Source: Botryllus schlosseri (Eukaryota). From it: a DNA stretch of 64,000 nucleotides. Positions 10,315 through 58,561 of the stretch are shown in pieces (position 1 is the stretch's first letter; the number at the start of each line of letters is the position of its first letter). Under the pieces are notes generated by a model. It ran no database searches, was not told where the DNA came from, and saw only the letters and a list, made by a program, of their open reading frames with translations. The DNA is taken from the NCBI GenBank assembly GCA_051294905.1, contig CM119371.1, forward strand, positions 8,682,001 to 8,746,000. The letters are read 5' to 3'. The position numbers were made by a program, and so were the translations under genes.

Positions 10315-12899
10315 TCATCCACATTCTTCGGACTGGTACTGGGTCGATCCAACCACCTGAGTGAGGTTGGACACGCTCGTTGCACCGTTGTCGGAATCTT
10401 CCAGATAGCCCAACAGAACCATGAAGCCCCATATAATCAACGGAATGCATGCGCATGTCAACGCCACCTTCAGAACGAGCCAAGTACGCGAATTCAACTC
10501 GCCTTTAATGCTGCGATTGATCTTGTCATGGCGAGTTTTTTCGCTGATTGCGTCATCTGAAATAAAATGTCGCGACTGAAATATAAGCACGAAACGTTGG
10601 ACATTCGAAGTTTACCCCTTCCGACATTACCAGTCGCACAACACACTACATCCCAAGCGTCAGACAGCTCATATCAAACCGATACCAGGCGCTACAGTTA
10701 GAGTGCAGCGTGTACAATATGAGCTATGATCCAATTGAAGTGTGATATTTTATGTGGATACTGCGGCCGGTAACAGAATAAAAAATTGACCATGGATATT
10801 TTTCATTCAGGGAGACGTCTACTAACATTGCGGGAACAGCTGCGTACAGTGCAAATGTACATATAATCATGGACACCCGAACGATGAAAGTCGTGTTAAC
10901 ACTACTAACCCAGGCGGCTACTTGTCACTGAAGCAATTGCGCCATAATCCGGGCTGCTTAGACCTTCTTTGATTGTATTCTTCAATTGAGCCTTGGAGCT
11001 GCTCGAGCCATCCAGGACTCCCAAATCATTAGCCTCCTGGTTGGCCTGCTTCGAACTTCTCCCTTTGCCTTTGATTGTCTTCTTTTCTTCCAGTACACCT
11101 TGTGACATTCGAAGAATCGATTTACACAATGCCACAGCGACAATACGAAAATATTGAATATAGTTGGCATGGTGTGTTCGTAACCAAAGTTCTAAAATGT
11201 CCAAAAAATCGAGCAGACGGCACTCGCCGTACATTTTTCGGCTCGTTTGTACCGTGGGCCAAGGGCAAGAATTTAGCACGATCCATTTCAAGTGACGCCA
11301 TGATTAGTCTTAGCGATGAATGACCTAGGCATCTCCATATTGAAAATGTTATTGGATATTAATGAGCGCATTATATCCTAATGGCTACGCAGTGCGCTTC
11401 TGCGATGAAAGTTATCAGTGACCTTCCTAATTAACCACCATGGAAGAAACGATAGACCACATTGACGCTCTTCAACTATAGAAAGGAGTCAGCAGGGTTG
11501 TAATCAAGTCACAAGGCTCCGAGTCACAAGTCACTCTCACTTTTATAGTTTTGACTCGAGTCAATTCGAGTCAATTTCATTTCGTCCCCGAGTCAACTTC
11601 GAGTTCAAATCATTATGCAGAGGTTTGAGTCCGAGTCATGGGATAATGACTCTAGTCCGAGTCAAAGTCATTGTGTTGACTGCTCAGTTTCCAGTTACAG
11701 TCTTGTTAAACCCACTGCTATAACCCTATTTGGTGATATCGAATGGTTCTCATTTATAATACACTAATTCCCCTCACTCCTAATAGTTTCTGGTCGCCTT
11801 TTCAAGTACCAGTACCAATAGACAAAGCCCCAATTGGGTGGTTACTTTTCCATTCTTCAAAATTACAATGAAATGTCGGTCGTGGCCGTCTGAGTCTCGA
11901 GTAATATGACTTGGATCGAGTCATGCGCAATGACTCGAGTCCAAGTCGAGTCAATACACATATTGACTCGAATCGAGTCAATATCCGTATGTTTAGAAAA
12001 TGACCCGAGTCAGGATTGTTAAGTGACTGGCGACACAATCGAGAACTCCAAAGAACGTTTTGTACAAGATTGGGCGACATGGAACTATGTAGGAAGAATA
12101 TATCAAGTGTATAATGAATGGATCGGAACGCTCACTTACACCGGTAGCGTGCATTACAATTTTTGCCATGAAACAAAATGAATCGGCGTTACCGTCATTC
12201 GGATTCTTCTCAAGCAGGTCTCCGTAAACGACGCTCATATCTGGGGACGCGTAGTTGCAACCCTTTCCAAGTCTTACAGGCAGTCGTACACCTTTATCGC
12301 CGAATAGATCACACGCCAGATCATCCGGAACCTCCACTAAACAAAGTTTTGAATAGTGATTAAACATACAGGTTTGAACCGAGACGAGACAATATTTGAT
12401 CAATCGCAGCGTTAGGGCTTACTTGGCGAGGGTAACTGCGCTATGGAAACGCACCCAGTCTCGAATAAACTTGCATAGAGTTCAATAGCTAGTCGAGGCC
12501 TGGACAAAAGTCCGAACAGAACGATAAAACCATAATTTACACGGTCACAGCCCTGTAAAATAAGACATCTCTAGCCCTAGTAAAATTGCACTGCTGACGG
12601 TGACGGCCCTATATGTCAAATAACACTGCTGTTCCAAGGAATGTATCAGCAATAATGAGACCAACGAGCTTGCTTGAAAATCAGATTGACACTGTTGGGG
12701 TCAACAGATATAATGTCATATGAAATGTGGCAATTGGTTATATTATACATCTTCGTCGCTTTACAGACATCTGTAACCTATCGATATTGATCGTCTTACC
12801 ATCACGACCTGGAACAACGTCGTATCCGTCACCGCGGTCCTGTGCTGGATTGCCATGGCAAAGCTTGCCGGCAGATTGCTTCTTGGAGCTGATTGGCAT
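10315..12899 (-). CDS. Paralog 1 (most divergent) of a type-II single-pass membrane protein family with cytoplasmic ITIM-like motif; 4 coding exons, ~224 aa
   Basis: Exon A 12899-12800 (ATG; MPISSKKQSAGKLCHGNPAQDRGDGYDVVPGRD, donor G|gtaaga). Exon B 12336-12193 (tttag|, 144 nt, ...DMSVVYGDLLEKNPND, G|gtaacg). Exon C ~11098-10910 (acceptor uncertain; ...EANDLGVLDGSSSSKAQLKNTIKEGLSSPDYGAIASVTSSRL, G|gttagt). Exon D 10556-10315 (tttcag|; DDAISEKT...TM LVLKVALTCACIPLIIWGFMVLLGY...NLTQVVGSTQYQSEECG*). All junctions are phase 1 and homologous to the other three copies; AATAAA lies ~490 nt downstream. Confidence 0.7.
11493..12010 (+). mobile_element. GACTCGAGTC-family MITE copy (3'-truncated) in intron B-C of paralog 1
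   Basis: Begins CAGGGTTGTAATCAAGTC; colinear with 1093-1610. Confidence 0.8.
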
Positions 12900-25142: not shown

Positions 25143-25607
25143 ATATTTATTCACTAAACTTTCCAAGTTCTGTGACAATGATGGTGTATTGTATGGTTTT
25201 GTTCTGTCAGAAGTATTGTTGATACGAAGTTCAATTTGCCCGCGAGTGTTCTTTCGTAATGCATTAGACATGCAATTTCATAGATTCGGTTATGTGACTC
25301 ATCAAAAAATGTGGGATTTCGCGAAGGCTTACAGATTAGCGTAGGTTAAAGAACCACTGCTGTAACAATAACTGAAAAACGCCGCTGTACGTGAATTGCG
25401 TTTCCATTAACGTAATCGGTCAAAATTTCGATCATGAGAAATTAGATGCAGATGTTCTGTGCGACTACGAAAATACGTTTTATAGGACTGCATTTGATAT
25501 CCAATATCCTACACAGCTGTGTATCGCACAGTGAAAACACCCGTCATTTCAAGAAACTGGGAACGTCACATTCCAGCTAAAAAACGCCATGAATACACAA
25601 CTGCACC

Positions 25608-25613
25608 TTTATT
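25608..25613 (-). terminator. Polyadenylation signal (AATAAA) of paralog 2
   Basis: AATAAA followed by GGTGCAGTTGTGTATTC (GU-rich); the context is conserved in paralogs 3 and 4. Confidence 0.6.
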
Positions 25614-26111
25614 TGGGATTACACGCAACAAAAACTGAAATGCGACATTCACAAATATTCAGATTCGCAAAGTGGTTGACAACGTTTGATTAGCTAAAAG
25701 TACATCCACGAAAGCTGAACGTTTGCATTACAACTTGAAATTAGTATGAGAAATATTGGTTGGTGTATTGAGAAATATTCCAATATTGATCGACGACACT
25801 CTTTGTCTGATTAAAAGATTATGTCTCATTAAAAGAATATGTCTGATTAAAAGATTACTCTTTTACAGCAATAACGTTCAGAAAATATCTTTACATCCCT
25901 TACAACAATAACGTTCAAAAACAATGGATCAGCACTATTACAATCGTCAAGATCACATACAAATGTTTAATAACAATGGATCAGCACTATTACAATGGTC
26001 GAGATCACATACAAATATCGAATCACGTCAACAACAGTTCAGGTGCGTACAACACAGATAGCGCAATATGTCAGGCGCTCATTCACGATACTTTCGACGT
26101 CAGCCCACTTC

Positions 26112-29100
26112 CTACGGGCTACCATTGACCCGAAGCTCAGGGACCGTGTCGCGAGTAACATGCGTTAGAAGCCAAATGACCAATGCGATCATGAGAGGGG
26201 ATAAGCCAATCAACCCCAAGACAATACGCTTCTTCATCCTAGGCGATATCATTTCGTAGAGAGTGAAGCAGCATATCAGTCCCCAGAGTGTGAAGCAGCA
26301 TTCACCAACACACGTCCAACCAGGTCCATCATCGTTGATCATGTTGGGGTTAGCTCCCTCGTTATCACGGTTATCTTCTGGTAAATGGTCATCTGAAACA
26401 GTGACCCGGATGTTGGAAAACAGCAAGGTGGGGTCATTTCTACAGCGAGTCACCAGGCAAAATTCATAATTTGAATCTACTATCAGGATTATGAATTTAG
26501 CCAACACCACACATGCCATGAAGCCTATCAGAGAACTCGCGCGACACGAATGATCGACCCGAATATTAGTACCTACATATGTAGATTCAAAGTATTGGAT
26601 TCAATAATCGCATACCACACGCACGGAACCGCGCGTTCCAGCCGCCGTTATCAAAATGCACAAGATATTTTCACGTCCGATCAGTGTGTATGCAAGTCAA
26701 CGAATAAAAACGCTCCACAGTACAGGTAGTATCAACTTTTCTCGGTTCCCCGAAAGTCAGCATGTTTGCATTTCCTAATAACTGTCCCCAAGCACGTACA
26801 GTAGGCTATTTATCTCCCTGCGATTCTGGTAGCCGGCTGAAACTGGGCAGTCAGTTACCAGTATGAGATACCCTGGTTCCGAGTTCCATAGTCGATTCGA
26901 AGTATCAATTTAGCATTAAAACACCCCGAACAAATATTTCGAGCAACTTGGGAGTAAACGTTTGGCGTTCAGCCAAATCGCACAACTTACCTGATATCAG
27001 CCGAAACGGTCGGATATTCCAATGCACGCGATATCAACATCAATATTAGTCGAACTAGCGACCATCTACTTTAAAATCTGCCACACCGGTTGGACAGTCA
27101 TCGAAGAACACCACGGCGATGAAATTATTTTATGAATACCATTTACCATTGTGGCGACTAGTCGACGCCATTGCGCAGTCATCCTGTGAGCTTCCTGCTT
27201 CGTCTTTGATTGCCTTCTTGGCTTCGTCTTTGATCGTCTTCTTGGATAAAGTCTTGGATTTGACACCGTCCTCCAGAAAACCTGAATCATTGGGTTCCTC
27301 GTAGGGTCCAGACATTCCGTCTGTAACGATAGTAAAAGAAATACTATATTTACCGCCGTATGTTCAACGTTACCAATGTCGTATTCCTGGCATCCAGGCA
27401 AGGATATTCTGACGCTTTTGTGCGTGCACCAAGGGAAAATATCTGGCACACTTCGGGAAAATAGTGTATTCTCATCAGAAAATAGCTATCCGATATAGGA
27501 ACCTACCTCACGATTATACGGAAGTATAATGCGAACTATTTTACCACAACTGATGCTCGACAAATTAGAAGACGTCGAATAGAGCATGAAGGAAGGCGCG
27601 CACGTATGTAACGTAGGCAGGTCGGATTTACAACAAATGCTTTACGCGACCGCCATTTCCACAAATTAGTCAAAAGATTATAAGTAGGGCCATTCAAAGT
27701 CATTGTCATTCTTTTCCATGTCATTTTTTCTATGTATCAGTAAGTCGAACAATTTTAACGCAAAAACACGTCGTGAAACCAATTTTAAAGCAAAAACCAG
27801 ATCCCCACGAGGTATATTACGAAAGTTTTAGTCTTATAAAGTCATATTTTACTAGTTAGATCGTATACCAGCCTTTCAAGTAATAAGATCGTCTCTGGAG
27901 CACTCATCACCCATACTTGTTTTGATCGTCTCTGTGGAGCGCTCATTCTCCTTACTGAAGTCATTAATACGTCCAAATCGTACTACAAACACTATTTACA
28001 TTTCTAAAGTCGTTATACGTCCAAATCGTAACTTCAAACACTGTTTACATTCCACACTGCTACAACAGTGGTTTGAAATGAAAATGGATGTGTATTGCTG
28101 TTATGTTGCGTGTGTTTTAATATTTTAGTTCCATGAGTGGCGTTGTTCGCATGTAAAAATACATGATCTTCACATGCAAAAATACATCATTTTAACATGT
28201 AAAAATGCATGGAGTTTCACAGAAGTCATATAAAGTCATATTTTCCAAAAATTTAGTCATATTATCGATTTTTGAAGGTCTTACAAAATTTGCCCGAATT
28301 AATAGTATGAAAGATTGGACATGTAAAAGACAGACGAAAATGTCAATTGATAACGCTGATGACTAACTTTCAGTTATGGTATAAGTAAACATTATTTTTG
28401 TCACAAAGAAATGCTGTTCAGCCGCTGACAAGTCCAGCGAGATATTATATAGTCACACTGAGATCGCGGATTTCGAATTCTGTAGAAGTTCTATTTTCGT
28501 GAATCGCCTTTTTGGGTGTCGATGATCTTTTCTGTAAAATGTAGGCGGGTAATGGAATCCATTGGCATAAAACCACAGGATAATGGGTAAGTATTTCAGT
28601 AGATGGCCCTCTGCTTTCAGAAAGATTTTTAAATACGCAAGCAAACGAGCATACATACACTGGCGTGTCATTTCTTGGTCTTCATACCTCACGAGCTCAG
28701 GGATGAGAAATGACGAGGTAGCAACTTGGACTCAAGTCGCAAGTAATGACGTCGAAATGTCAGTGTCGACAATTTAACGGTATATTAGCAGACTTCACCC
28801 ATTGGATATGTGCCTCTGTATTAAGGAGGGAGCTAGTATACGCGCCTCTGCAGTAAGCACAGGTCAACATAAAATAGACTACCACGGCATGGACATCTGC
28901 CTATCAATGGCAAGCGTCAGAATGCAAACGAGGAGCGGCCAACAACTTCCTGAAAACGTTTGCGAAGATCTATAGCGTCACGGAGTTATTGACGACAATG
29001 ATCGACGTTGAAATCGTATATCGATATGATGTTGAACGTAACGACCACTCCCACCAGCAACATGCACCTACAATATCGCCGAAGATAAAAGATAAATTAC

Positions 29101-31700
29101 CGATAGTATCTAAATTACCGATAGTATCTTTCCTATTCTTCTCGGGCAGGTCTCCGTAAAAGACGTTCATATCATGCGGTCCTGAGTTGTTGTCCTTCGC
29201 AGATCCCACAGGCAGGCGTACGACTTTCTCATCGGTTTGGTTACGGGGTGATTCATCCAAAACCATCTCTATAAGAAGGCGTTTGAGCAATTTTAGCAAT
29301 TGTAACTTTCCTTGGGTGCTTGGCATATCCACGACTCAAAATGAGCTTGCATGAAATTTGACTACGCGCTATACAAATGAAATTGCTGGTCGAAACGGAA
29401 CGGGATTATCTATACCTACATACGATTTTTCGTGTTGTTGCGAAAATGGCATCTTTCAACATCGAACAACGTTAAACTATCGATGAATGATTCCCTGACG
29501 AATCAAACCTGTTACCAGTTATTCTACCGAACAACATATGCAACTAAAACTTTGCACCAATGCTGGAAATATATACTGAATGTCGTACCAAGATAGATGT
29601 CTGGATTTATGAAGGATCCGTCACCGGAGACTGGTCCCAGACTACCACAGTAAATCTTGATGGCAGATTGCTTCATGGAGCTCCCTGCTTCGTCGTTGAT
29701 TGCCTTCTTCAAACGGCTTTCGGATTTAACCTCGTCGTCCAGAAATCCTGAATCATTGGGTTCCTCGTAGGGACCAGAAATTCCGTCTGTAGCGATAGCA
29801 AAAGCGAGACCATTTACCAATGCATCTTGCAACGTTGGTAATGTGGTATTCCTTGCACCCAGACGAGGAGGAAGCTGTGTGTACTCGTACTTGGTGGACA
29901 ATCAACGTAAGACTATCGGCTCAATCCGAGCATTTGTGGATACACGCCTAGTGAAAATGGCGCATTCACGTCAGAAAATGGGTTCGGAAGCTACCTCACA
30001 TTTATACGGTGAGAAGTAGAAAGTAACACACATTTTAACCCAACTGATGCTTTGACAAATTAGAATGACCTAAGATTGAGTATGAAGGAACGTGGGCACG
30101 TATGAAGGTATGTATATTCACGTAGGACGGTTGGATTTACACGACACGCTTTACACTGCAGCAATATCCGCAAATTAGTCAAGAGAATACAAGTACCGAG
30201 GGATTGAATAAGTTCATGAACTCAAACCGTGCAGTTTAAGTAAGTATAACAATATTTTGAACATATAACGAAATGCCGTTCAGCCTCTGACAAGTCCAGC
30301 GAGATATTCTATTCGCTGAAATGTGATCGTGTCGCTTAAATATGAGCGTGTCATAGAATGGATTGGTATTAAACCAGAGGGTACTGTGAAAAGTATTTCA
30401 GTATATGGCCTGGTGCTTTCAGAAAATAGTTTCAAATACGCTGGCAAACGAGCATACATACAGCCCCGTGCCGTGTATTTCCCGTTTCAAATATGCTGGC
30501 AAACGAGCATACATACAGCCGCGTGTCGTGTATTTCCCGGTCTTCATATACCATACGATCTCAGGCATCACCTTTACCACGCGACATATTTATTATCGAT
30601 GGTGACGAAGTCGAAATAAACGATGTCGAAAACCAGTATCGACATTTTAAGGCTTACTGGGACACTTCACCCACCGGATATGTGTCTCTGCATGAAGGAA
30701 TATTAGACACCCGCCGCTGCAGGAAACTCCGGTCACCAAAATATAGACTACCACGGCATGGCAATATGCCTATCAATGCGTATCTGGAGCAAAGAGTCGT
30801 AATGCAAACGAAGAGCGGCCAACAACTTCCTAGAACCGTTTGCCAAGATCTAGCGCCACGGACATTGTAATTCTAGATGGAGATGGTATGGAACGTGACG
30901 ACAACTCCCACCACTAACATGCACTCTCAATTTCGCCTTAGAAAGAAAACTAAATTGGCGATACCATCTTTCTGATTCTTGTCAAGCAGATCTCCGTAAA
31001 ACACGTTCATACCCTGCGGTCCAGAGTTGTTGTCCTTCATAGATCCCGCAGGCAGGTGTACGATTTCCTCATCGGTTTGGTTACGGGGCGATTCATCCAA
31101 AAGCATCTCTGTGAAGCAAAGGTTTGTACGATTTCAGCAATCGCAACTTCGCGGATGGCTTGGCATATCCACGCCCCGAATAAATGTATGCATTAAATCT
31201 GAATACGCGCTTTGAAGGAAATTGCTAGTCCAAGAGATCGGGGTCATATATACATGATCTTTCGCGTAATTGCGAAAATGGAATCTTGCAACTATACGAC
31301 GACACCGGCAGTTGCTTGTTTGTGGTATTCATGGTGTTTGTCGACTACTATGGTCATTTACACCAGCAATTTTATTCCGTAACACCGGCATATCAGCCTA
31401 CATGATCGAATGGATATAGTGAAAGAACTGTTCAAGGGAGTTCAACTCTATTGGAATCCAGAAATAGCACGCGAAGTGGATAAGTCACAGTTCATGACAT
31501 CAGATATTCGACAGTGCAGACACCACGTTATTGTACCGAACAAGATCAACAAGTATAACGTTACACCCAGACTGGAAGTCTATTCCAAATGTCTCACCAT
31601 CATCGTTATCCGGATTATTGAAGGATCCGTCACCGGGGCCTTGTCCAAGATTACCAGGGTAAAGCTTGCCGGCAGTTTGCTTCTTGGAGCTGATTGACAT
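26112..31700 (-). CDS. Paralog 2: fused/internally duplicated member with exon order A-B-C/A-B'-C-D, two ITIM exons, ~349 aa
   Basis: A 31700-31598 (MSISSKKQTAGKLYPGNLGQGPGDGSFNNPDNDD, G|gtgaga). B 31108-30965 (EMLLDESPRNQTDEEIVHLPAGSMKDNNSGPQGMNVFYGDLLDKNQKD). Chimeric C/A 29786-29589 (DGISGPYEEPNDSGFLDD...DEAGSS|MKQSAIKIYCGSLGPVSGDGSFINPDIYL). B' 29268-29119 (...NVFYGDLPEKNRKDTI, shifted donor G|gtaatt). C 27320-27147. D 26392-26112 (Cys cluster, RMKKR, TM IVLGLIGLSPLMIALVIWLL). All internal exons are multiples of 3, phase 1, with no stops. Confidence 0.75.
27684..28295 (+). mobile_element. DNA transposon relic with hAT-like C-terminal fragment in intron of paralog 2
   Basis: Peptide SVERSFSLLKSLIRPNR (27930-27985), AAGTCAT subterminal repeats; absent from the equivalent intron of other copies. 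Confidence 0.5.
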
Positions 31701-32272
31701 TCCTTTTGCTCCTAACGGATTATCCACTACAATCGATACTTACTGTTAAAAATATGATCAGAACTTCAACTACGACCGGGGTTTTGACTCCCACGGTCAT
31801 AGCCTGCAAATATACACGTCACGATAACACATTTTCCAGCTCTTGATAACCGGAGCACCGCAAACCTGCTAAAAGAAGAATGTTAGTGGAATGCCAACAT
31901 CGATGGCAGTAGGCATATAGGAAACCAGACGGACATGGTTGATGATTAGAAGACGACCAATTAAACACTGATTACTGCAAGAGACAATCGCTGTTTTGCG
32001 ACGGTGATATTTCAATTAAACTCTCCATTGTCCTCTCCTAACCAAGGTATCGCTGTCTAGCGCCCACTCCTTGGTGGTCAACTGATATTTACGGTACAAC
32101 GATGAGATAACTGAATTCCGGGTACAATATCAATTGTAGTCAGACTCAAACAGCTAGAGTCTATGTTTCGGACAATTGAAATTATTACTGGGCTTTCATT
32201 TATTAAAATTATATTCAAGATAAACTTCAGAAGCCTAATATACAGATGCAATTTCTCATTAGGCCTATACAA

Positions 32273-32580
32273 TCATCATCATTGGTTTATTAGCAATTTT
32301 ATCAGTTCAATACACCACAAAAAATGCGATACAATGAATAGACAGGAAGATGTCGAAGCGACTTGGATTTGTCGATGGAATCAGACACCCACCTTGGCCT
32401 AGGCGATGTAAAGAGGAGGCATGCACACTGAATGAAAGTAAAGAAGACAGCATAGAAAAAGAAAGCGACAAGAATAGGGCGGCATGTCATGGGAAGCGAT
32501 ATCGATAGGTCAGTCGTGGTCCGGTAATATTGAGGATGGACTGTATTTATTTATTAGTAATTGCTTGTATTTCGACAAAT
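32273..32580 (-). mobile_element. 5'-truncated CR1/L2-clade LINE 3' end
   Basis: Near-identical to 62010-62315, with a (CAT)n tail. Confidence 0.75.
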
Positions 32581-36584: not shown

Positions 36585-36682
36585 CTGTCACAATCATGTT
36601 GCATGGTTTTGTTCTGTCGTCACAATCATGTTGCATGGTTTTGTTCTGTCGTCACAATCATGTTGCATGGTTTTGTTCTGTC
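36585..36682. repeat. 31-bp tandem repeat x~3 (GTCACAATCATGTTGCATGGTTTTGTTCTGTC-like)
   Basis: Directly visible; a single related copy occurs at ~25170-25210 in the paralog 2 unit. Confidence 0.85.
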
Positions 36683-37649: not shown

Positions 37650-40600
37650 TCAGCCTCTTCCTTCGGGCTTGTACTGACCTGATCCAACTCCCAGAGTTTG
37701 ATTGGGCAAGCTCGTTGAATCCGGGTCGGATTGATGAGGACCGCGCAATAGAAGCCACACGATCAATCCGATCACGAAAACGAATGATCCTACAAACGCC
37801 GCCACAATGCACCTCACCTTCCTAGGCGATGCGCAGAGTGCGAAGCAGCATTCATCAACACACGTGCCATCGGGTTCATCATTGTTGAGCAAGTCGGGAT
37901 CAGTTTCCTCGCTATGACGGTCATCTTCTGGAAAGTAGTCATCTGAAATAATAACCAGAATGTTGGAAATCAGTTGAACTACAGCGGGTCCCAAGGCTGA
38001 AATTATAATTTCAATCTAGTAACACCACGCATGCCTATCCCGTCTTCCCTACATCTCTATAGATTCTACGCATATATCTGTTTTGAGACTAGGATTATAT
38101 AATCTCATATCACACGACGCCGCGCATCTCAGCTGCCGTTAACAAGGTGCATAACATACTATCACGACCCATTCAATACGTCTGCAAATCCCCGAATAAA
38201 AACGTTCCAATGTACATGTAGGAATAACTCCCTGCGATCCCCGAAACTCGGCATGTTCAGTCCTCGAAAAACAACTGTCCACAGTATATGTAATATTAAC
38301 TCTGCGATCCCTGAAACCGGGCAGGGAATTACCAGTTTTGGATACCTTGGTTCGGAGTGCCATAGTCAATATTATTGCGGTTTCGAAAGCGTGTCAGTCT
38401 TCTTTACACGCGATATCGATTTAGTGATACAACACCTCGAACATAGTTTGATCAACTTAGAGTCAACGTTTGACACCAGACTGATGATGCGACCCGCAAC
38501 ATAGACGAGATGGGCATAGGCGTACGACAGGCCTGGTTGAGTGCGGCCCGCGGGCCGAATCCGATCCGCGGAGCTATTCTGTGCGGCCTGCGAAAGGTTG
38601 CTTGAAATTGAAAATATAGAACCTACTTTTTAATGTTGCTGCGTGGACTGAAACCATAGGATGTATAAACTGAGCCGAAAGTTCGTTTACTATCAAGTCT
38701 GTTCATTAACATACCGCGATTACGCAGGCTTACGTACCTCACGTGCCTAATCCTGATTCAAAGTGAAGTCAATGTAGCAAATTATGCCGTTACAATTAAA
38801 GTCACAAGTCCCCGAACCTTTTTTGTTGCCATTGCCACATTACGAATTACACGGCCTGCGTTTCAAATTGTTACGTGATGTTGTTCCAAATCCCTAACAA
38901 GTCAATCACTGCCCGTGATTTCTATGAGTATATCACCACCCATAAACGATGTAAAAAAAAAGAAAGCCGAAATTGGAAATTCAAACATTGTTCGGAGCAC
39001 TAAATATTTGATTACTACCAGTCTTTTTAGTAGTTAGTGCCAAGCACGTCGCCGTGTTCAAGGAAGTATTATTTAAGTCGCTTCTACGACTAAAACACGA
39101 AGACATAGGGCCTACACTCGATCAATGGACAGCAAATTTTGGAATACCTGCAAGCTTGGCTTAACAACAAGTACATTGCAGCAAGCTGCACACTTCTCAT
39201 AATTCAGCCACCAAGACAAAAGGCTTTACAGGATCCCCAGGACCGTAACTGTGGCACCCAAACCCCCAATTGGGGAGGGGAATCTCGAAGGGCGCCCAAA
39301 ATTGTTTCGTGAACGACCAAAAATTAGAGAGTAGTTTTTGAATATTTATGCAACTTCTTACAAATTTTTCTCGGGCTAGGCGCGATTTCGAGATCAATGA
39401 TTATAGAATTGGGTATTTCGGCGTAAGCCATTACCGCGCCATGACATACCAAGATATATCAAGTGCAGGCCAACACGGTATTCCGAGAAGGCACGGCAAT
39501 TGCAACTGCTGATCAAATTAAACAAGTAAAAGCTCGACAGCGAAAAAGCCTTGGCCCAAAAGGACTGTCCTCATGTAGACCGAAAACCACGATCTCCAAT
39601 GGTCCGTAGGCATTATTTTCAGGTGACGAAATATCAATTGGGAATCGTGCATGTGCGATTTCTAGTTTAGTATACGCTTTGACAATTCCAATATATTTCT
39701 CATTTCAGACGTGAGGTTACGAAATAACAACATCTAACGAAGTAATTATACCTACAGGTCCTCTCGAATATTTCCATGACAGCACCTCACTCTGCTCTAG
39801 CGGTAAAACTGAGTACGAGGGCATAAAGAGGTTTAAAAAATATAGCTATATATATATGACATTCCCAATATTATTGACCTATTGAATCCTGAAACATGGA
39901 AAAATTCCGCGTTTCGCGCGGTTCGGGCATAAAACGTTGCCAAATAGTGTATATAAGAAATCTCGCTCAGGAGTAATGTTAAAACATGCATCATGATGGG
40001 TCTGGTCTGACGGCGAAGCTTTCAGTTCAGAAATAAAACCAATACGCTGGAGAAGACAGCTAAAATTTATCGCCCCGCCAACATATTTTCTGCTTCTCAT
40101 TTGACCCGCGGAGAAAAATAATACCTCTGGCGTACAGAAAAGAAGTTAGGTCGCTACCTCATAATCAGCCGAACCAGCAGGATATTCAATAAACATGATA
40201 TGTACTTCCATAACTAGCCGGGCATCCAGTGATAAACATGGTGATGAACTTAATTTTATAAATACCATTTACCATTTACTATAGTCGATGCCATTTCGCA
40301 GTCATCTTGGGATCTCCCTGCTTCGTCGTTGATTGTCTTCTTCAATATGGATTTGTATTTAACCGCGTCGTCCAGAAATCCTGAATCATTTGGTTTCTCG
40401 TAGGGTCCAGACATTCCGTCTGTAATGGTAGCAGAAGCAAGGCCATTAACCTTTGCATCTTTCAACAACGATAATGTGGTATTCCTGGTACCCAGACGAG
40501 GAGGAAGTAAGACTATAGAGGTTTAATCCGAGGATTTATGGATACACCAAGGGATAAATTTCCGACACACTTACTGAAAATGGTGCATTCACGTCAGAAA

Positions 40601-43600
40601 ATGGGTATACGATATCGGAAGCTACCTCACAATTATACGGGAAATAGAAAGCAAACACATTTTAACCGAACTGATGCTTTGACAAAGTGAATGGCCAAAA
40701 ATTGAGTATGAAGGAACGTGGGGAACGTATGAAGAAATATTCACGTAGGCCGGTTGGATTTACACCGAATGCTCTACATTGCATTCATATCCAAAAATTA
40801 GTCAAAATAATACAAGTACGAGGGATTGATCAAGTTCAAGGTAAAAATGTCAATTGATGATGTTGATGAACTCAAACCATGCAGCCGCTGACAAGCCCAG
40901 GGAGATACTCTTTCCGCTGGAATGGGAGAGTGTCATAGAATCGGTTGGTATAAAACCAGAGGGTAATGTGAAAAGCATTTCAGTATATGTCCTGGTGCTT
41001 TCAAAAAGATTTTCAAATACGCTAACAGTCGAGCATACATACACCCGCGTGTCGTGTATTTCCCCGTCTTCATAACATACGATCCCAGGGATGAGAATGA
41101 GTCAGGTATCAACTTTACTACGCGACGTATTTATTATCGATTGTGATGAAGTCAAAATGGAACGACGCCGAAAGCCAGTATCGAGAATTTAACGGCTTAC
41201 TAGGACACCTCACCCACCGGATATGTATATCTGCATTAGCGAACATTAGATACCCGCCGCTGCAGGAAACTCATCTCATCAAATACAGACTACCGCGGAA
41301 TGGCGATCTGCCTATAAATGCTTATCTGTAGCAAAGAGTCATAATGCAAACGAAGAGCGGCCAACAACTTCCTAAAACCGTTTGCCAATATCTAGCATCA
41401 CGGATATTGTAATTGTAGATGGAGATTGAGATTGATATGGAACGTAACTACCACTCCTACAACTAACATACACTTAAAATTTCGCCGCAGAGAAAAAAAT
41501 ATAAATTGAGGATACCATCTTTCTGATTCTTGTCCATCAGATCTCCGTAAAACACGTTCATTTCCTTCGGTCCAGAGTTGTTGTCCTTCATAGATCCCAC
41601 AGGCAGGTGTACGACTTTCTCATCGGTTTGTTTACGGGGCGATCCACCCAAAAGCATCTCTGCAAAGTAAATGTTTGTACGATTTCAGCAATCGCAACTT
41701 TGCGGATGGCTTGGCATATCCACGCCTCGAATAAATGTATGCATGAAATCTGAATACGCGCTTTGAAGGAAATTGCTAGTCCAAAGAGAGCGGGGTTATA
41801 TATACATGATCTTTCGCGTAATTGCAAAAATGGAATCTTGCAACTATACGACGACACCGGCAGTTGTTTGTTTGTGATATTCGTGTTGTTTGTCGACTGC
41901 TATGTTTATCAACACCATGCCGATATCCTTCATTTTTATTCTGTACACTCTTAAAAACTGGGCCCACCTTTAAAGGTGTTTCAAAAAAAACCTTCAAAAG
42001 AGGAGGGAAATTTTCTACCTTATCTCACCTGGTGGTTATTTTCCCACCTCATCATAAGATGGGCAACTTTCCACCTTGTCCTATCCGGATTCGGCTTCAT
42101 CCTACCCGGATATCCTCGAGGTACAGCATATAAGCACACTTTAAGCTTTCACAAAACACTAAATCACCTTCATTCCAATGCCTTTATTTGCAAATTAGTC
42201 ACGAATGTGATCCAGTTTGGCATAAGCTGCAGTACTGATGTCTTTTACACCTGGCAAACGCGCCAGAAAAACTGACATGACAGTCAGAAACTGCATTTCG
42301 AAGATCCAACGAATTTCTAGCATCACTGAAAATGCCTCATGGAAGCTCTCGATATTCTTCACCTTTTCAACATCAAACCAGACGGTCCACTCTTTCTTCA
42401 TTGTATCGTAGCAAATTGTAGGACACGCGGATGTGGGTGTCTTAACGAAATATATTATTATGTGAAAGAAGCATCAGGTCAAACATACGCTTAACACACA
42501 CACACAGACACACACTGATGTTATTTCAGTAATCAGCTTATGAAATATACCGGCAGCAGGGCACTGCGGATCCTATTTTCAGTCAACATATGATATCAAA
42601 TAGCAAATAGGCATATGTATATGCGGACTTGGCCAGGTGGAAGTGATGACCATTTTGAGTCATCAGCTAATGTGAACAGTAACCTTTGTGGCTCTCAATT
42701 TTTTGTCGGTGCGGACCCTTTTCTTAACCATCAAGGCAAGGCATCCGTACAGACACCCCTTAAGTTTTAGTTCAAATCATGCTCAATAATAGTGCAACCG
42801 TCATCCACCTCTTGTCAATAGTCCTTTTTTTGCAAGTTGCAAAGGTACATCTTGGCGAGTTTGAAGTAGCAACCTTGGATAACTGCTGATATCTACTTTT
42901 TGAAACTACTTGAGTACTTTGCAGCCCTTCATTTCCTACTTGGTTGAAGTAGCTTTGACATGGATTTGAAATCACTACTTCTACACTATATACTAACCTA
43001 GAAATATCCGAAGTGATGCTTTACCCGAGCTAAGAAAATCACAAATTATATTATCATTCAGGTTAAAAATTTAGAGGTCTGCAAACACCATAAAGATGTG
43101 CTTCACGGACCCAGAGTTAGCACTGCGGGTTGTGGGACCGAGCTGAAAAGGGAGCATGGGCTTGTAACACCGGTTTTAGGTTTGCTCCTCACTAAAAAAG
43201 GTTGAATACACCACATTGAGAGAAATGTATTGATACTATAATTCAATAATTGATATTATAAAACGTAATTTTCAGTATTTAAAATTGTCTCCGAATCTCC
43301 ACGACTCGACTACAGTTGAAGCTCGATTTTGTGCCAGTAGTGGAATAGTTTTATCCATCCCAAATTTCAAGCTAACAGGTATATTTATAAAAATCCGTAC
43401 CTGTTGAACCTGGAAGAAATTGCCACATCCTTCATGAAAAATTGTAGGTATAGAAACAATCCGGTCTAGATTTTGAGATGCTGTAAAACAAAATATATTA
43501 TAAGTCCAAGTTGATCACTGAATACATACAGGTCAACATCAACTCATTACAATACAGCAGAGTGGAGTGCGTCAACGCGTCGCGTCGTAATGACGGATTA

Positions 43601-46600: not shown

Positions 46601-49532
46601 TTCTTATCTATGGATTTGTACCTTCGTCATCATGATTACTTGGCAACGGCAAATTTTTTACCAATCTAGTGTTTTTTTCGCCAATCTAGTGTTTTTTCAC
46701 GACATAATCTTGTGTTTTTCCAAGAACCTAGAGTGGCAACACTGTGAACGAGGACGACGGCAGGTTCCTGCAAGCGAGCTGCAGAAGTGTTTGTTTTCGA
46801 ATTCAGTTGTTCGTCAGAGATTGATTCTTTATACTGCCTGTTCATCAGCCATTAGGTTACTTGATACCAGTTGTCAGGATGACAGAAGAGCGAGGTGTCG
46901 GTGTTGTTGCAGAGGTACCGTAACTGGTGGTTCTGATTTCTGCTGTCATTTGGAATGATTGTGTGGTGAGGTAATGTATGAATATATGCTGGCATGGTCA
47001 ATTAGTCATGTTTATGATTTCGGAAACACACTGGAACTAAAGTACTACCGGTACTCTCTGATTGATTGCGCACATCATCATGCTGATTATATAATAATAT
47101 TTATATTTCCTATTCATTGCTGTGCTGCTTTATCAAGTGATAATTTTGATTGATTCAATAATTTTGTTTGATACATGGCTGTTCTGTGACTCCTTACTTC
47201 TTGTCAAAATTTAGTATCATTCTTCAGGAGTATTATGGTAGGAGGCCTAGTGGTCTCGGCCAAGTCACAGTAACACAATATTTAATTTTGTTGTTGGCAT
47301 CAGCAATGCATCATGGCATGCCTGGGTTACTTATGTTTACCCTCTCCGTAAAGCAACTAATATTGCTTTCTCTATTCTCGCAGTCTTTTTATCTTATTTT
47401 CCCTGCCTAGTTCCTACCACTTGCATTTATATTCAAAATATATACCGTACCTAAGATTGATTTGAAATTTAATATATATAAACCCTTTTAAGGCATTTGT
47501 TGATACTAATTTTTTGATTATAATGTTCATATCTGTTTTGCAGGCTATATTTATGTGAAATAGCACTAAAGCAATAGCAGGATTTTTTTCGGATCCTAAT
47601 TTTGTTACTCAGCTGTCGGACTCCGAAATCCTATTTGACTGTTGGATCAGGACGGATACAGATTCCCCAAATCTGGAATCCACCCATCTCTGAATTCAAC
47701 TCATCGTGCTTTCACTTCCTCTTTTGCTTTTGGCCTCATTGGCGGACGGACTTCTAGTAGCCTAAAGTCTCTGCAGCTTTGTTTAATCGTGTGTGATCAA
47801 GTATAGACGGAGGTTTTTACAATGGCGAGCACGCTAAAACCGTTACTTCATTAATTTGGCTGCAATTCTCAAGATTCCTGGACAGTAACGGTATGCTGAA
47901 AGATTGGCAGAAATTCGATTACGGCATTGGCTATCTGAACCGATTGAAGAAGCAGTTTTGCATCAATATGAGCAGTTTGAAGACTTGACTGGCTGCTTCA
48001 CTTCATAATAACTGTTTCACTGGCTGAACTGATGTAACTTGACTGGCTGCTTCACTGCATAATAACTGTTTCACTGGCGGAACTGATGTAAGCGCGCGTG
48101 GAAGGGATGGAGCTTGTGTCTCTCCCGGTCCGGTAATTCTCCCCGTGATGTGGCGCGGCGTTGTTAGGGTTTTAGTTTAGGGAATTTGTTCATTGATGTT
48201 AGTTTGGGGCTAGTGTTCTGCTAATGTGGTGCGGTCATGCCCGTGTTTGCGGTTTTGTTGATGATTTTAACTTTTTTATGGTATTTTGTGAGACTGCTGC
48301 TATAGGCACTTTTCAAGTTCGATCGGAATAGTGTAGCAGCTGTGTTCTATACTGTTCCTTACGTCAGTTGTAGTATCATCGCATCGTGCTTTCACTTCCG
48401 CTTTTGCTACTGACCGCTTCGGCGGACGGACGTGTAATAAAGTCTCTTCAGCATTTTTGAATCGTGTGTGATCATGATCAACTACAGATGGAGGTCTTTT
48501 ACAATTATGCATTCGCATTCAGATTCATTATCAGGTGATAAAAAATGTGGTTGAAGGCGAGATCGATAAGTCAGGCTGTAGTCCTGTAATCATGATCTGA
48601 CTATGGTATTGATTCAGTATAAATTGTGTGTATTTTGATTTGAATGTGGACCTGTTCCATAACTGTCGGAGCTGTGCAGATTTTCATAAATTATAAAAAA
48701 TAACTGATTTCGAAAAACCTGGAAATCGAATTTAATTACACTGAAATTCCGGACATTTACGGGCGTATGTAGCAACCCAAACATTAATAAATTTCCGTTG
48801 CATGACCAATCAGCTAAGCAGAACTCGTCAACTTACGCGTACTTCATCTGACGCCATGTGTTCGGACTGCCGTCCCAAGTCATAGGGGGCTCGTTCCGCA
48901 GCATTTGTAATATTTCACGGGTTTACCAAAAATAACGTTACGACAGCTTTTGTATATTTGTTGACGACGACGCAGTATATGATCTCGCGCGAAAATACAT
49001 CTTCCACCTCCCAAAACCCTCCTTATAAAGTGATGTATCGTATATCACTTTATAGGAGAGTTTTGGGAGGTGGAAGATCTATTGTCGGAGGTGGGAAGAC
49101 GTACTTCACCGAGGTGTATAGCATGTTCCTACCTCTCGTGAAAGGAGGAATTATCGTTTCCACCTCAATTTTAGCAAAAAACCCACCTTTATTTTTTACA
49201 GTGTAACACCGGCAGTTAACATTCTACATATCAGCGTACACGATCGAATGGATCGAGTGAAAGAACTGTTCGAGGGGAGACCAACTCTGAATAGCACGCG
49301 ATGTGGGTAATCCACAGTTCGTGACATCACACTTTCGACAGTGCAGACAACAAGTTATTCTACCGAATAAGATCAACGAGTAGCCTATAACTTTACACCC
49401 AGACTGGAAATCTATACTGAATGTCTCACCATCATCGTTATCTGGATTATTGAAGGATCCGTCACCGGTGCCTTGTCCAAGATTACCACGGTAAAGCTTG
49501 CCGGCAGAATGCTCCGTGGAGCTGGTTGACAT
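37650..49532 (-). CDS. Paralog 3 of the ITIM-like type-II membrane protein family, 4 coding exons, 228 aa; intron 1 expanded by a 7.3-kb transposon
   Basis: A 49532-49430 (MSTSSTEHSAGKLYRGNLGQGTGDGSFNNPDNDD). B 41659-41516 (...EMNVFYGDLMDKNQKD). C 40419-40273 (DGMSGPYEKPNDSGFLDDAVKYKSILKKTINDEAGRSQDDCEMASTIVN). D 37942-37650 (DDYFPEDD...TCVDECCFALCASPRKVRCIVAAFVGSFVFVIGLIVWLLLRG...NQTLGVGSGQYKPEGRG*). Canonical cag/gt sites, all phase 1. Confidence 0.8.
38528..40129 (+). mobile_element. hAT non-autonomous element in intron C-D of paralog 3
   Basis: Left end CAGGCCTGG..GCGGCCCGCGGGCC, degenerate right end, TSD gcgtacga/gcgtacag; absent from the same intron of paralogs 2 and 4. Confidence 0.7.
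44137..44656 (-). mobile_element. TAGGGCTGGGC-family MITE nested in the CACTA-like element
   Basis: TIRs and TSD gctactag/gctacaag. Confidence 0.85.
45674..46744 (+). mobile_element. Internally deleted hAT element with dimerisation-domain remnant, nested in the CACTA-like element
   Basis: TIR CAGTGGTACCACTC/GAGTGGCAACACTG, perfect TSD tgaacgag, CTAGTGTTTT subterminal repeats, peptide KFPLLGKLITNLLALPHSTACVE. Confidence 0.9.
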
Positions 49533-54329: not shown

Positions 54330-57300
54330 TTAGGGCTGGTGTTGATCTGATCCTACCCCCGATCTTAGTTGGGCAGGCTCGTCGATTCCAAAACTGACCA
54401 ATGCAAGCCAAATGATCAATCCGAGCACGAAAACGGCTGCGACTCCCAACACCACCGCAATGCACCCAATCCTCATAGGCGATTCGCAGAGTATGGTGCA
54501 GCATTCATCAATACAATTCTCGTCAGATCCATCATCGCTCCTCAAGTCGGGGTCAGTTTCTTTCCTATTACGGTTCTCTTCTGGCAAATAGACATCTGAA
54601 ATAATAACCTGAATGTTGGAAAACAGCGAGTCACCAGTCACACCAAACGGACACGCATGTTCGACCCGATTATTCGTACCTACATCTGTGGAGCCGAAGT
54701 ATACACCTGTTTTATGACTACAATCGTATAGCACACGACACTGCGCGTCCTAGTGCCGGTAACAAAGGTTCATGAACATTATTCTCACGCCCTATCACCC
54801 TGTACACAAGTCCCCGAATAAAAACGTAACACAGTACATGTGAGTATTGACTCTGATCCCCGAAACTCGGCAGGCAGCTACCAGTTTGATACACCCTGGA
54901 TCAGAGTGTCATATTACCCAATATTGCGGTTTCGAAAGCGTGTCAGTCTTCTTCACACAAACGATATCAATTCAGCATTAAAACATCCCAAACATATTTT
55001 GACCAACTTGAAGTGACCGTTTGACACCAGACTGATACTGTGATCAGCGACATGGACAAGATAGGAACAGTAGTATCACAACTTTCCTCATGTCAGCCGA
55101 AAATTCATTGAAGCTGAAGTAACAAACTGGCCTCGTATAATCAGCCGAAAATTAATTGAACGCGATATGTACTTCCATTATCACCGCTCCAGTCGGACAT
55201 TCAGTAAAGCACACTACGGCGACGAAATTAATTTTATAAATACCCTTTACCATTGCGGCGACTAGTCGATGCCACAGCGCACACATCCTGTGAGCTTCCC
55301 GCTTCGTCTTTGATTGTCTTCAATCTAGTCTTGGATTTCACCGCGTCCTCTAGAATTCCCGAATCATCGGTCTCCTCGTTGGGTCCAGACTCTCCGGCTT
55401 TAATGATAGAAAAACCAATGGATTAACCACTGCTTCTTGAACGTTGAAAACGTCGTATCCCTGCAACCAGACAAGCGGGAAGCTATGTACTCTTACCTTG
55501 GGGAATTCAACCCAAGACTCGGGAGGTTTAATCAGACGGAAATCAAGCGAAAAAATATCCGGCACACTTAGTGTAAATAGTGTATTCACATAGGAAAAAG
55601 AATACACAATTTTGGAATCTACCTCACAATTATTACTTTATTATACGCGGCGTATTTATTATCGATTGTGATGAAGTCAAAATCAACGACGTCGCGATGA
55701 AATTGTCGACAATTTAACGGCTTTCTGACACACTTCACCCTCTCGATACGTGCATGTGCATAATCGCACATTGGATAGGCCTATCTTAAAATCGACTACC
55801 ACGATATGACAATCCACCTATCTACAGCAAAAATTCGTAATGAAAACGAAGAGCGGCCAACAACTTCCTTGAACCGTTTGCCAGATGTAGCGCAGTGATT
55901 CTCAAGCTTTGACCTCGCGGCACCCGTTGGAAAAGAAAAATAGTTTGCGGCACACCATCACATTGGTTCTTGGTTCTGAACTTTTTTGGTTTACGGCAGA
56001 CTGCGGAGTACATGTTTATTACTCGCCAGTATACAACACACTGATTGCAGGCTGAAGCCTTTAGAAAACAAACGGAAATAATATTACAACACTCTTCACT
56101 GCGATCAATCAACGTATTGTTCAAAACTGAACTCAGCCTTCTAGGCACGCGATATTACCGGTATAGAGTGAATTCAAGGGGTTGTTTGGGGCTGGGCACA
56201 ATGATTCGAGTACTCGAATATGAATAGAGTGGTAATTTTATTGATTCGAGTCGGATAGTAAAAGGCGATTTTTTTCGAGCACTGAAATGACACGCTCCTC
56301 GCAACTGTAAGTTAATTTACTATCGAGAAGTATGGGTTTGACAGTATTTTCTACTAACGAAGCCTTGAAACCATGATTGTCCGTGTCGCAGCATACGAGA
56401 CATAGTACAAAGCTACCAACGTTACTGGAAATATCACATTACCGAAGTCGTGATCTTCCGACAACATTCCAGTGTTGGGATGACTCGAGCAATGACTTGA
56501 CTCGAGTTACCTTTTTCGCTTTTTCGTGCGACTTGACTCGCTCGTATTAGAAATGTGGATTGACTCGGTGACTCTGAGCAAAATTCACGAGGTAATTTCA
56601 AGTCATCAGTGTCGTTAAAATTCACTTTAACTTGCATATGTTCGGATTGTTCGCGAAACACTGATGGAACACCCGAGAGCGACCAATAATTCATTGATCG
56701 TACGTTTTACTGATCCTCCATTGTTCTCTTACGCTATCGCTAACTAGTATAGTAAAGTAATTTATTACAAAATGTCTATTTCTGTTCTATGTTATTACCT
56801 TAAACAAAACCTCGTTCTAGTGAAATTGAATTCGAATATAATCGATCCTCAACCATTGGCGCAGGCTCAAATTGTATCATATCAATTTGCAAATGGGAAA
56901 TTTACGCGTATTGTATCTTATCAATTCCTTTCTCTATTCTCTATTTGGCCGTTAGCTATAAACTGAGACTATGCAATTACTTACGTAGTCCTATACGTAT
57001 ATGTGTGCGATACAGCGCCATCTTCCGTGTATATTCAACTCAAAATCAATGGTCACTCAAAATCTGTATTTCAGACAGCTAGCAAAATGCAATGACATAA
57101 TCATACCACATACTTCGAAAAGGCGACTTGACTTGAATTGTGACTTGACTTTGACTCGAGTCACCCCAAAAAATCAAGCGACTTGACTTGACTCGAGTCA
57201 ACGTCGACAATCGATTGACTTGGCTTGACTCGAGTCAAAATGTGCAATGACTCGACACTGAAAGGTAGTGAGTTGAATCCAATACTGCAACATTGTCGAG

Positions 57301-58561
57301 AACTTCAATAAAATCGGTATGGCCGAAAAAATACCAAAGCATCTTCAATGTGATGCATAGCGCATCCAGTGTATTTTTTGTTGTGGCATAAAAGGTCCGC
57401 ATTTGAACTTTGACATAATACTCGACTCGGAAACACGCGATTCAGAATCGAATCACGCAGGTACTCGATTTTATCCAGCCCTAGCTTTTGATTGCGGCCA
57501 TAGCATCAATTTTGATTTATCAAATGTACATACTTCACGTAAGTGGTACTCGATATTATCCAGCCCTAGCTTTTGATTGCGGCCATAGAATCAATTTTGA
57601 TTTATCAAATGTACATACTTCACATAAAGCTCGATTTAGATTGACAGTTTGCTATAGATTAGAATTGTTTTGCGCCTAATTTCAAAATTCAGAAAAGTTC
57701 CCTCGCGGTATACTTGCGAGACGTAAATGGCACACTAATGTGCCGCGGCACAGCGGTTGAGAACAACTGATCTAGCGTCACGGGGTGACGGTTACAATGA
57801 TTGACGTTGCAATTGTAGATCGAGATGATGTGGAACGTAACGACCACTCCCACCACTAGCATGCACTCGCAATTTCGCCGAAGAAGGAAAACACATTGGA
57901 AATACCATCTTTCTGATTCTTCTCAAGCAGATCTCCATAAAAGACGTTCAAATCCTGTGGTCCAGAGTTGTTGTCCTTCGCAGATCCCACAGGCAGGCGT
58001 ACGGCTTTCTCATCGGTTTGGTTACGGGTCGATTCATCCAAAAGCATCTCTATAAGAAAGGATTTTGAGCCATTCCAATTGCAACTTAGCGGATGGCATG
58101 GCATATCGACGCCTCGGATTAAATGTATGCATGAAATTTGAAAAGCGCTTCAAATGAAATTGCTAGTCGAAAGAGAGAGGCATTACATATACATATCTTT
58201 TTAATAATTGCGAAAATGACATCTTGCAACTATACCAGAACACCGGCAGGTAACATTATACATATCACCGTGCACGGTCGAATGGATAGAGTGAAAGAAC
58301 TGCTCAAGGTAGTCAAACTCTATTGGAGTCCAGCGGGTTATCCACAGTTCAGGACATCATACTTTCGACTTTGCATGCAGACAACAAGTTATTCTACCGA
58401 ACAAGATCAACAAGTATAACTTTAAACCCAGACTGGAAATCTATACTGAATGTCTCACCATCATCGATATCTTGATCATTGAAGGATCCGTCACCGGGGC
58501 CTTGGCCAAGATTACCACGGTAAAGCTTGCCGGCAGATTGCTTCATGGAGCTGATTGACAT
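54330..58561 (-). CDS. Paralog 4 of the ITIM-like type-II membrane protein family, 4 coding exons, 219 aa
   Basis: A 58561-58459 (MSISSMKQSAGKLYRGNLGQGPGDGSFNDQDIDD). B 58049-57906 (...DLNVFYGDLLEKNQKD). C 55397-55251 (aag acceptor; AGESGPNEETDDSGILEDAVKSKTRLKTIKDEAGSSQDVCAVASTSRRN). D 54595-54330 (DVYLPEEN...NCIDECCTILCESPMRIGCIAVVLGVAAVFVLGLIIWLALVSFG...HQP*). All phase 1, open throughout. Confidence 0.8.
55893..57769. mobile_element. Charlie-type hAT MITE in intron B-C of paralog 4, containing two further nested MITEs
   Basis: CAGTGATTCTCAA/TTGAGAACAACTG, TSD atgtagcg/atctagcg. Nested TAGGGCTGGGC MITE ~56187-57483, itself containing a CAGTGTTGG element 56470-57287 (TSD caacattc/caacattg). 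Confidence 0.85.

Follow-up and report, generated by a model that had tools for sequence, protein, structure and literature searches.

A hexapeptide of the form V-x-Y-G-D-L is encoded five times on the minus strand of a 64,000-nucleotide stretch of the Botryllus schlosseri genome (GenBank assembly GCA_051294905.1, contig CM119371.1, positions 8,682,001 to 8,746,000; hereafter the window), and amino acid changes are far rarer in it than in the remainder of the exon that carries it. The copies sit in four tandem predicted genes, P1 to P4, one of which, P2, contains an internal duplication. We tentatively read the motif as a selectively maintained phosphotyrosine docking site of the immunoreceptor tyrosine-based inhibitory motif (ITIM) type, carried by membrane proteins that would be N-in and tail-anchored-like, a reading that is quite possible, though short of probable.

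The degenerate pattern GTNNTNTAYGGNGAYCTG (GTN-NTN-TAY-GGN-GAY-CTG) matched the window five times, always on the minus strand, and matched none of 100 dinucleotide-preserving shuffles. The initial annotation had listed five copies with their codons, and all five 18-mers agreed exactly with the listed strings at the listed places. Translation in the exon frame showed that residues V35, Y37, G38, D39 and L40 of the motif-bearing exon, exon B, were invariant in all five copies and that position 36 was the sole variable residue of the motif (F in four copies, V in the copy at 12215). One synonymous codon variant each was found at V (GTC/GTG), Y (TAC/TAT) and D (GAC/GAT), which confirmed the claim that these residues vary only silently and that only the x position changes (V/F). 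The rest of exon B had been described as strongly different in P1, and this also held: only 16-21 of 47 residues were common with the other four copies, and the nucleotides were 57-63% identical outside the motif, while 15-17 of 18 were identical inside it. The conserved stretch exceeded the ITIM core and read D-M-[NS]-V-[FV]-Y-G-D-L-x-[ED]-K-N. A second small conserved block, V-[R/H]-L-P, was present upstream of the tyrosine motif in all five copies, at exon B residues 16-19 (about 31050-31061 in P2 exon B), with V16, L18 and P19 invariant.

Alignment of the five loci gave a 144-nt block bounded by AG and GT, exon B, which was open in one frame in all five cases with both ends in phase 1 (phase 1-1). 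Four exon types were recognized in each gene (Table 1): A, whose ATG lies in a conserved ggagcaaaaggaATG context; B, with the motif; C; and D, the last, which ends in the stop codon. All 14 listed donors were G/GT, the four exon D acceptors were all tttcag/AT, and every junction was in phase 1. Exon A with its flanks recurs once more at 49227-49872, where identity to the corresponding regions of P2 and P4 is 75-81%. The ATG and the donor of this copy are intact, and P3 exon B follows 7.8 kb downstream; the copy either serves P3 as its first exon, separated from the others by an intron filled with repeats, or is an orphan.

Contigs of public runs from the same species were placed on positions 24000-43000 of the window, and the models of P1 and P4 were built from sequence alone. 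Splicing was supported at three predicted exon boundaries by RNA-derived contigs. A contig of run X6 (record 10) joined 26036-26392 directly to 27147-27320, that is, the acceptor of P2 exon D and the boundaries of its second exon C (C'). Another contig of the same run (record 11) covered exactly 29589-29786, and its flanking 140 and 76 letters were not on adjacent DNA. A third (record 12) carried 41516-41659, which is P3 exon B with the motif, together with exon D at 37585-37943, and the 149 unplaced letters between the two pieces were close in number to the predicted 147-nt exon C. Since this last contig differed from the window by substitutions and five gaps, it was taken as an allele. Contigs of run X7 ended at the same boundaries (record 16 at P2 exon D, records 18-19 at P3 exon D). 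About 6% of raw RNA run X12 was read; depth on the family exons did not exceed 2 per bin, and 1613 of the 1636 placed reads lay only partly on the stretch, mostly on repeats; this run says little on the expression level of the family. Run X5 contributed contiguous genomic pieces (29193-33245 and 39547-41856) with about 1.4-3% substitutions and several indels. Because these pieces are contiguous across introns and differ to that degree, they were read as DNA of another individual, and they indicate high allelic divergence at this locus in the species.

The predicted products were 219-228 aa long, and that of P2 about 349 aa. Each had one strongly hydrophobic 19-residue window (mean Kyte-Doolittle 2.5-3.0), with 174-312 residues before it and only 18-33 after it, and a hydrophilic N-terminus in which no segment resembled a signal peptide. 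Ahead of the hydrophobic segment, three of the four proteins were acidic (D+E 37-58 vs K+R 19-34), the counts in P1 being 25 vs 27, and 1-4 K/R residues were found in the 12 residues before the hydrophobic window compared with 0-1 after it. From these features we infer an N-in topology, type II or tail-anchored-like, without an ectodomain, which would place the motif in the cytosol about 100 residues from the membrane. The tail of an inhibitory receptor, as implied by the initial annotation, is not what these proteins resemble, as they lack a signal peptide and a recognisable ectodomain; if the motif signals at all, its carrier would be a small adaptor-like, tail-anchored protein and not a receptor. 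AlphaFold on exon B, run with a five-row alignment, returned a mean predicted local distance difference test score (pLDDT) of 59.6 and only a 3-residue helix, a result that fits a disordered region, although the alignment is shallow.

Each protein had 3-8 tyrosines in the N-terminal region, and the exon B tyrosine was the only one of the predicted cytoplasmic region kept in all five module copies. P1 has Cys for the exon A tyrosine, lacks the exon C tyrosine of G-P-Y-E-E-P, for which P4 has Asn, and has Ala for the exon D tyrosine, for which P2 has His. Apart from the exon B motif, no match to [ILVS]xYxx[LVI] occurred in all four proteins; P3 alone has a further one, V-K-Y-K-S-I.

Taken over the whole family, the substitution pattern of the exons was near neutral. 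Among three to four young copies, those other than P1, the pairwise ratios of non-synonymous to synonymous rates (dN/dS, Nei-Gojobori) were 0.8-2.3 in exon A, 0.28-2.65 in exon B and 0.96-1.55 in exon D, and the maximum likelihood ratio (omega) of exon B overall was 0.78. Exon C gave 0.25-0.97 in non-P1 pairs and looks more constrained than the other exons. The motif departed from the rest of exon B in several respects. Five of its six residues were invariant compared with 8 of the remaining 41 residues of the exon (Fisher p 0.004), and the minimum numbers of synonymous and non-synonymous changes were 3:1 inside and 6:44 outside when all copies were counted (p 0.012), or 3:0 and 3:20 for the four young copies (p 0.008). 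Pooled over ten pairs, the ratio of the proportions of non-synonymous and synonymous differences (pN/pS) was 0.08 in the motif and 0.78 outside it, with pN about sevenfold lower inside (0.030 vs 0.215). Since pS in the motif (0.36) was not below that outside (0.27), the conservation is not simply a lack of mutations. Among 114 gap-free six-codon windows of exons A-D the motif had the lowest pN, and the next-lowest window was the motif shifted by one codon.

A GY94-type likelihood model, in which the tree, kappa and the synonymous rate were shared and the tested window had its own omega, gave an omega of 0.115 for the motif and 0.90 for the rest of exon B (twice the log-likelihood difference, 2dlnL, 7.9; p 0.005 if the window is taken as pre-specified). 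For the 13-codon block of residues 32-44 the values were 0.385 and 0.97 (p 0.013). The null log-likelihood of this one-parameter test, -477.863, was that obtained by IQ-TREE; the IQ-TREE partition test itself, which has six extra parameters, gave a 2dlnL of 7.7 and was uninformative. In a scan of exon B the likelihood-ratio test (LRT) statistic was 7.7 at the motif window and at most 5.6 for shifted windows. The constraint on the motif is quite probably real. Divergence among the young copies was far greater in exon D of P2, P3 and P4 (dS 0.34-0.46) than in exons A and B (dS 0.04-0.25), which suggests that the genes have a mosaic history, in which their 5' halves exchanged sequence and their 3' halves possibly underwent diversifying change.

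According to the mechanism that we tentatively favour, the motif would sit in the N-terminal region of small single-pass membrane proteins, a region that would be cytosolic, acidic and disordered, and a Src-type kinase would phosphorylate the motif tyrosine. Once phosphorylated, the motif, whose Val at -2 and Leu at +3 are invariant, would dock an SH2-domain protein of the kind recruited by ITIMs, a SHP- or SHIP-type phosphatase, so that the proteins would act as membrane-anchored inhibitory adaptors and not as receptors, and in-frame duplication of the module would give two motif copies, as in P2. The ITIM consensus is [I/V/L/S]-x-Y-x-x-[L/V/I] and requires the -2 residue, which the definition of the YxxPhi sorting signal lacks. 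V-[FV]-Y-G-D-L fits the ITIM consensus in five of five copies and would, if the predicted topology holds, face the cytosol as ITIMs do. Four points favour the ITIM type. Its consensus includes the invariant Val at -2, which YxxPhi does not; the motif region looks disordered and acidic; and, by analogy, F-Y-G-D-L resembles the Src substrate I-Y-G-E-F, which would explain the invariant Gly and Asp, and SIT is a known case of a small adaptor that bears an ITIM and has hardly any extracellular part.

Several points weigh against this reading, and they concern both the reality of the constraint and its nature. If the motif window is treated as chosen post hoc, the purifying selection claimed in the initial annotation, which stands at p=0.005 for a pre-specified window, reaches by column permutation only p=0.11 in an invariance scan and p=0.09 when the largest LRT among 42 windows is taken. 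In the young copies the motif was identical at 16-18 of 18 nucleotides, no better than the exon (about 85-92%), and what sets the motif apart in these copies is that its differences are all silent. There are only five sequences, which are non-independent and may have undergone gene conversion. When P1 was compared with the other copies, identity was still about 65% over the 85 nt of intron that directly follow the exon, and third positions in block 32-44 differed at 1-5 of 13 sites compared with 16-17 of 34 elsewhere; a less-diverged tract from gene conversion may therefore contribute to the similarity of P1. For these P1 identities the global-alignment shuffle control was bimodal and poorly calibrated, and only the raw values were used. 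Taken to the end, these points describe a locus without any motif-specific constraint, in which recent duplication, gene conversion and the choice of the best window in a short exon produced the pattern. We regard this as unlikely. The scan-corrected p values, the 66-95% identity of the flanking introns of the young copies, the P1 intron sequence beside the exon and the mosaic dS values, which would be expected if the 5' parts had been exchanged, all agree with it. However, such a history does not sit easily with synonymous differences that are at least as frequent in the motif as elsewhere while non-synonymous ones are so rare, or with P1, where identity to the young copies falls to about 50% in the other exon parts, lower than in the intron, and reaches 77-87% in block 32-44. 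Moreover, the hexamer with the lowest pN also fits a tyrosine consensus, for which a random match has a probability of roughly 0.2% (a rough estimate from typical residue frequencies). The evidence for purifying selection is thus suggestive and supports it modestly, and five non-independent sequences cannot settle it.

If the constraint is accepted, its target may still differ from an ITIM. The ITIM consensus is degenerate and a match to it is no test of function; G+1, D+2, K+6 and N+7 are conserved although the consensus does not demand them; and the classical co-ligation logic of ITIM receptors is inapplicable because there is no ectodomain. The label of the initial annotation fits [ILVS]xYxx[LVI] and derives from that match; as a reasonable hypothesis it is better phrased as an ITIM-like or YxxL tyrosine motif. 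A tyrosine-based sorting signal, in which unphosphorylated Y-G-D-L would be read as YxxPhi by the mu subunit of an adaptor complex and direct endocytosis or lysosomal or trans-Golgi network trafficking, is somewhat unlikely. Y-G-D-L fits YxxPhi, written as Y-x-x-[LIVMF], in five of five copies, the motif lies in the predicted cytosolic part, the selection statistics apply to such a signal equally, and a YxxL endocytic signal had already been proposed as an alternative in the initial annotation. Against it, Val at -2 is invariant through a synonymous GTC/GTG change although YxxPhi does not need that position, and the invariant G+1 and D+2 are not demanded by such signals either; these invariant positions, which are not decisive, are left unexplained, and the motif would stand about 100 residues from the membrane segment. 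It is distinctly unlikely that the whole 13-residue stretch D-M-x-V-x-Y-G-D-L-x-x-K-N is a phosphorylation-independent binding element to which the ITIM and YxxL matches are incidental; it could be an LC3-interacting region (LIR)-type [WFY]xx[LIV] core or a short recognition helix for some partner. Conservation does reach K43 and N44, as well as D32 and M33 in most copies, block 32-44 has the lowered omega given above, and the upstream V-[RH]-L-P block suggests a composite interface. Yet the constraint was strongest at the six-residue window and weaker when that window was shifted, and structure prediction gave no confident fold.

We compared the ITIM-type reading with known systems. ITIM receptors have a ligand-binding ectodomain (Ig-like or C-type lectin) through which they can be co-ligated with an activating receptor, for which the few residues past the hydrophobic segment leave no room here, so the proteins are not classical ITIM receptors. 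LAT and PAG carry a palmitoylated CxxC. The membrane-adjoining Cys cluster C-x-x-E-C-C-x-x-x-C on the predicted cytosolic side, found directly before the membrane segment in three of the four genes and absent from P1, resembles it. As far as its published description goes, SIT has 196 aa with an 18-aa extracellular part, one membrane segment and a long cytoplasmic part with tyrosine motifs, and its ITIM binds SHP2; it has a leader peptide, a short N-terminal extracellular part and five motifs (PMC2193021). Measured against that description, the family shares with SIT/LAT/PAG-type adaptors the small size, the single membrane segment, the long predicted cytoplasmic part and the short other side. 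In contrast to SIT, the topology is opposite, with the N-terminus predicted to be cytosolic and the membrane segment near the C-terminus, and one conserved tyrosine stands against five motifs. The family has no detectable sequence similarity to adaptors of the SIT/LAT/PAG type and no Pfam hit, and because of the inverted topology, the lack of homology and the single conserved tyrosine these proteins are not vertebrate transmembrane adaptors.

The sequence I-Y-G-E-F, the core of an optimal Src-family kinase substrate, is part of the standard Src substrate peptide AEEEIYGEFEAKKKG, which was used for metazoan and pre-metazoan Src (PMC7298416). F-Y-G-D-L shares with it the hydrophobic residue at -1, Gly at +1, the acidic residue at +2 and the hydrophobic residue at +3, but there is no acidic run directly upstream of the tyrosine, and the likeness is one of resemblance only. 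An immunoreceptor tyrosine-based activation motif (ITAM) has the form YxxL-x(6-12)-YxxL, and a hemITAM has an acidic triplet directly before a single YxxL. Both were rejected as classifications: each module has a single YxxL, and the residues before the tyrosine are D-M-N-V-F, which contain no acidic triplet.

If the motif is a true ITIM-type site, the family would represent inhibitory phosphotyrosine signalling through minimal, receptor-less, tail-anchored adaptors in a non-vertebrate, and would clearly exemplify proteins in which selection keeps a single linear motif while the scaffold around it evolves freely. It would also offer a tractable entry to SH2-based inhibitory wiring outside vertebrates, in which a single tyrosine and a 13-residue peptide are easy to test. 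A bolder version seems doubtful to us: the proteins would be lineage-restricted, tail-anchored adaptors of inverted topology that arose independently as analogues of the vertebrate SIT-/PAG-type. Their sole constrained element would be a Src-optimal ITIM-type site whose number is tuned by duplication of the phase 1-1 module, and the remaining protein would be neutral or diversifying, as expected of a component of immune or self/non-self signalling. Should the motif instead be a sorting signal, the genes would form an ordinary taxon-restricted membrane protein family. Either way, the evidence base is five sequences from one locus.

Homology searches identified no relatives of the family. None of 144 minus-strand stop-to-stop open reading frames (ORFs) of at least 60 aa reached the curated cut-off of any Pfam family; weak hits to ANG-1, DUF4679 and OpgC_C were below these cut-offs, and none lay on a family exon. 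In a further 59 ORFs, drawn from 165 plus-strand ORFs and 7 large minus-strand ones, nothing in Pfam was found at E<=0.001. Word-indexed searches against longer proteins gave 71 candidates for P3 exon D, none at E<=0.01, and 725 candidates for the exon B alignment, none at E<=1; against near-length proteins the exon B alignment gave one candidate, also not at E<=1. An exhaustive profile search with exon D over 1.84 billion representatives found no relative and one spurious hit (E 2e-5, 628 aa), a tandem-repeat translation that matched the hydrophobic positions 62-86 only. In the ESM Atlas the best score with exon D was 0.80, where 0.9 was the threshold for a lead, and SLC3A2_N and CLLAC were other short single-pass segments. 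Because the searched protein libraries miss the window's own ORFs too, these blanks are weak evidence of a restricted family, which may simply be unsampled. No description of such a family was found among the papers listed for YGDL or for tail-anchored ITIM proteins; the YGDL papers whose subject could be recognised dealt with an E. coli gene name or unrelated abbreviations, and the ITIM papers were unrelated.

The internal structure of P2 (26112-31700, minus strand) differs from that of the other genes. The whole A-B-C exon module is duplicated in frame, with the duplication joint inside an exon, which yields a fused exon C/A' of 198 nt, beyond which exons B and C occur again (B' and C'). The predicted P2 protein thus has two V-F-Y-G-D-L motifs, 114 residues apart, a distance at which they do not form an ITAM. 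The original donor of exon B' is lost (GATA/ct), and an 18-nt tandem duplication (GATACTATCGGTAATTTA, twice) lies at the 3' end of this exon (29101-29136, minus strand); it appears to supply a new in-phase G/GTAATT donor 6 nt further on, by which the frame would be kept. Since all exons are in phase 1, the motif-bearing module can duplicate in frame, as in P2.

Table 1. Motif copies, genes and exons of the V-x-Y-G-D-L family (coordinates in the window).
Feature	Position	Strand	Basis
V-F-Y-G-D-L, exon B of P2 (motif under study)	30987..31004	-	pattern and translation
V-F-Y-G-D-L, duplicated exon B' of P2	29147..29164	-	pattern and translation
V-V-Y-G-D-L, exon B of divergent gene P1	12215..12232	-	pattern and translation
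V-F-Y-G-D-L, exon B of P3	41538..41555	-	pattern and translation; exon in RNA-derived contig
V-F-Y-G-D-L (TAT codon), exon B of P4	57928..57945	-	pattern and translation
Gene P1	about 10.3-12.9 kb	-	reconstructed
Gene P2	26.1-31.7 kb	-	reconstructed
Gene P3	37.6-41.7 kb, with probable first exon at 49.4 kb	-	reconstructed
Gene P4	54.3-58.6 kb	-	reconstructed
P1 exon A, coding part (KLYxGN Tyr to Cys)	12800..12899	-	sequence
P1 exon B, 144 nt	12193..12336	-	sequence
P1 exon C	10910..11098	-	sequence
P1 last exon D, coding part with stop, without Cys cluster	10315..10556	-	sequence
P2 exon A, coding part (ATG at 31700; donor GATGATG/gtgaga, phase 1)	31598..31700	-	sequence
P2 exon B, 144 nt, phase 1-1 (acceptor cacag/AG; donor G/gtatcg)	30965..31108	-	sequence
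P2 fused exon C/A', 198 nt, duplication joint	29589..29786	-	sequence and run X6 contig
P2 exon B'	29119..29268	-	predicted from sequence; junction not among the RNA contigs listed
P2 exon C', 174 nt	27147..27320	-	sequence and run X6 contig
P2 last exon D, coding part (acidic stretch, Cys cluster, hydrophobic segment, stop)	26112..26392	-	sequence and run X6 and X7 contigs
P3 candidate first coding exon (exon A copy)	49430..49532	-	assignment to P3 inferred
P3 exon B, 144 nt	41516..41659	-	run X6 contig, the same contig as last exon 37585-37943
P3 exon C, 147 nt predicted	40273..40419	-	sequence; 149 unplaced letters in run X6 contig
P3 last exon D, coding part with stop	37650..37942	-	sequence and run X6 and X7 contigs
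P4 exon A, coding part	58459..58561	-	sequence
P4 exon B, 144 nt	57906..58049	-	sequence
P4 exon C (GPYEEP Tyr to Asn)	55251..55397	-	sequence
P4 last exon D, coding part with stop	54330..54595	-	sequence

Rfam (at the gathering threshold) and tRNA scans of the window gave no matches. A repeat of about 305 nt was present in two direct copies that were 95% identical (32272-32576 and 62009-62314). Contig depth on it was very high in all runs, and raw RNA of run X12 covered it about 60-fold on both strands; it had no Rfam or tRNA match and is probably an abundant transcribed interspersed element. Between P1 and P2, a large inverted-repeat structure occupied 18730-24384. Its arms paired 18730-19504 with 24384-23642 (83%), 19693-20159 with 23774-23309 (88%) and 20386-20797 with 23313-22900 (90%), and the whole resembles a foldback-type element or a nested pair of inverted copies.

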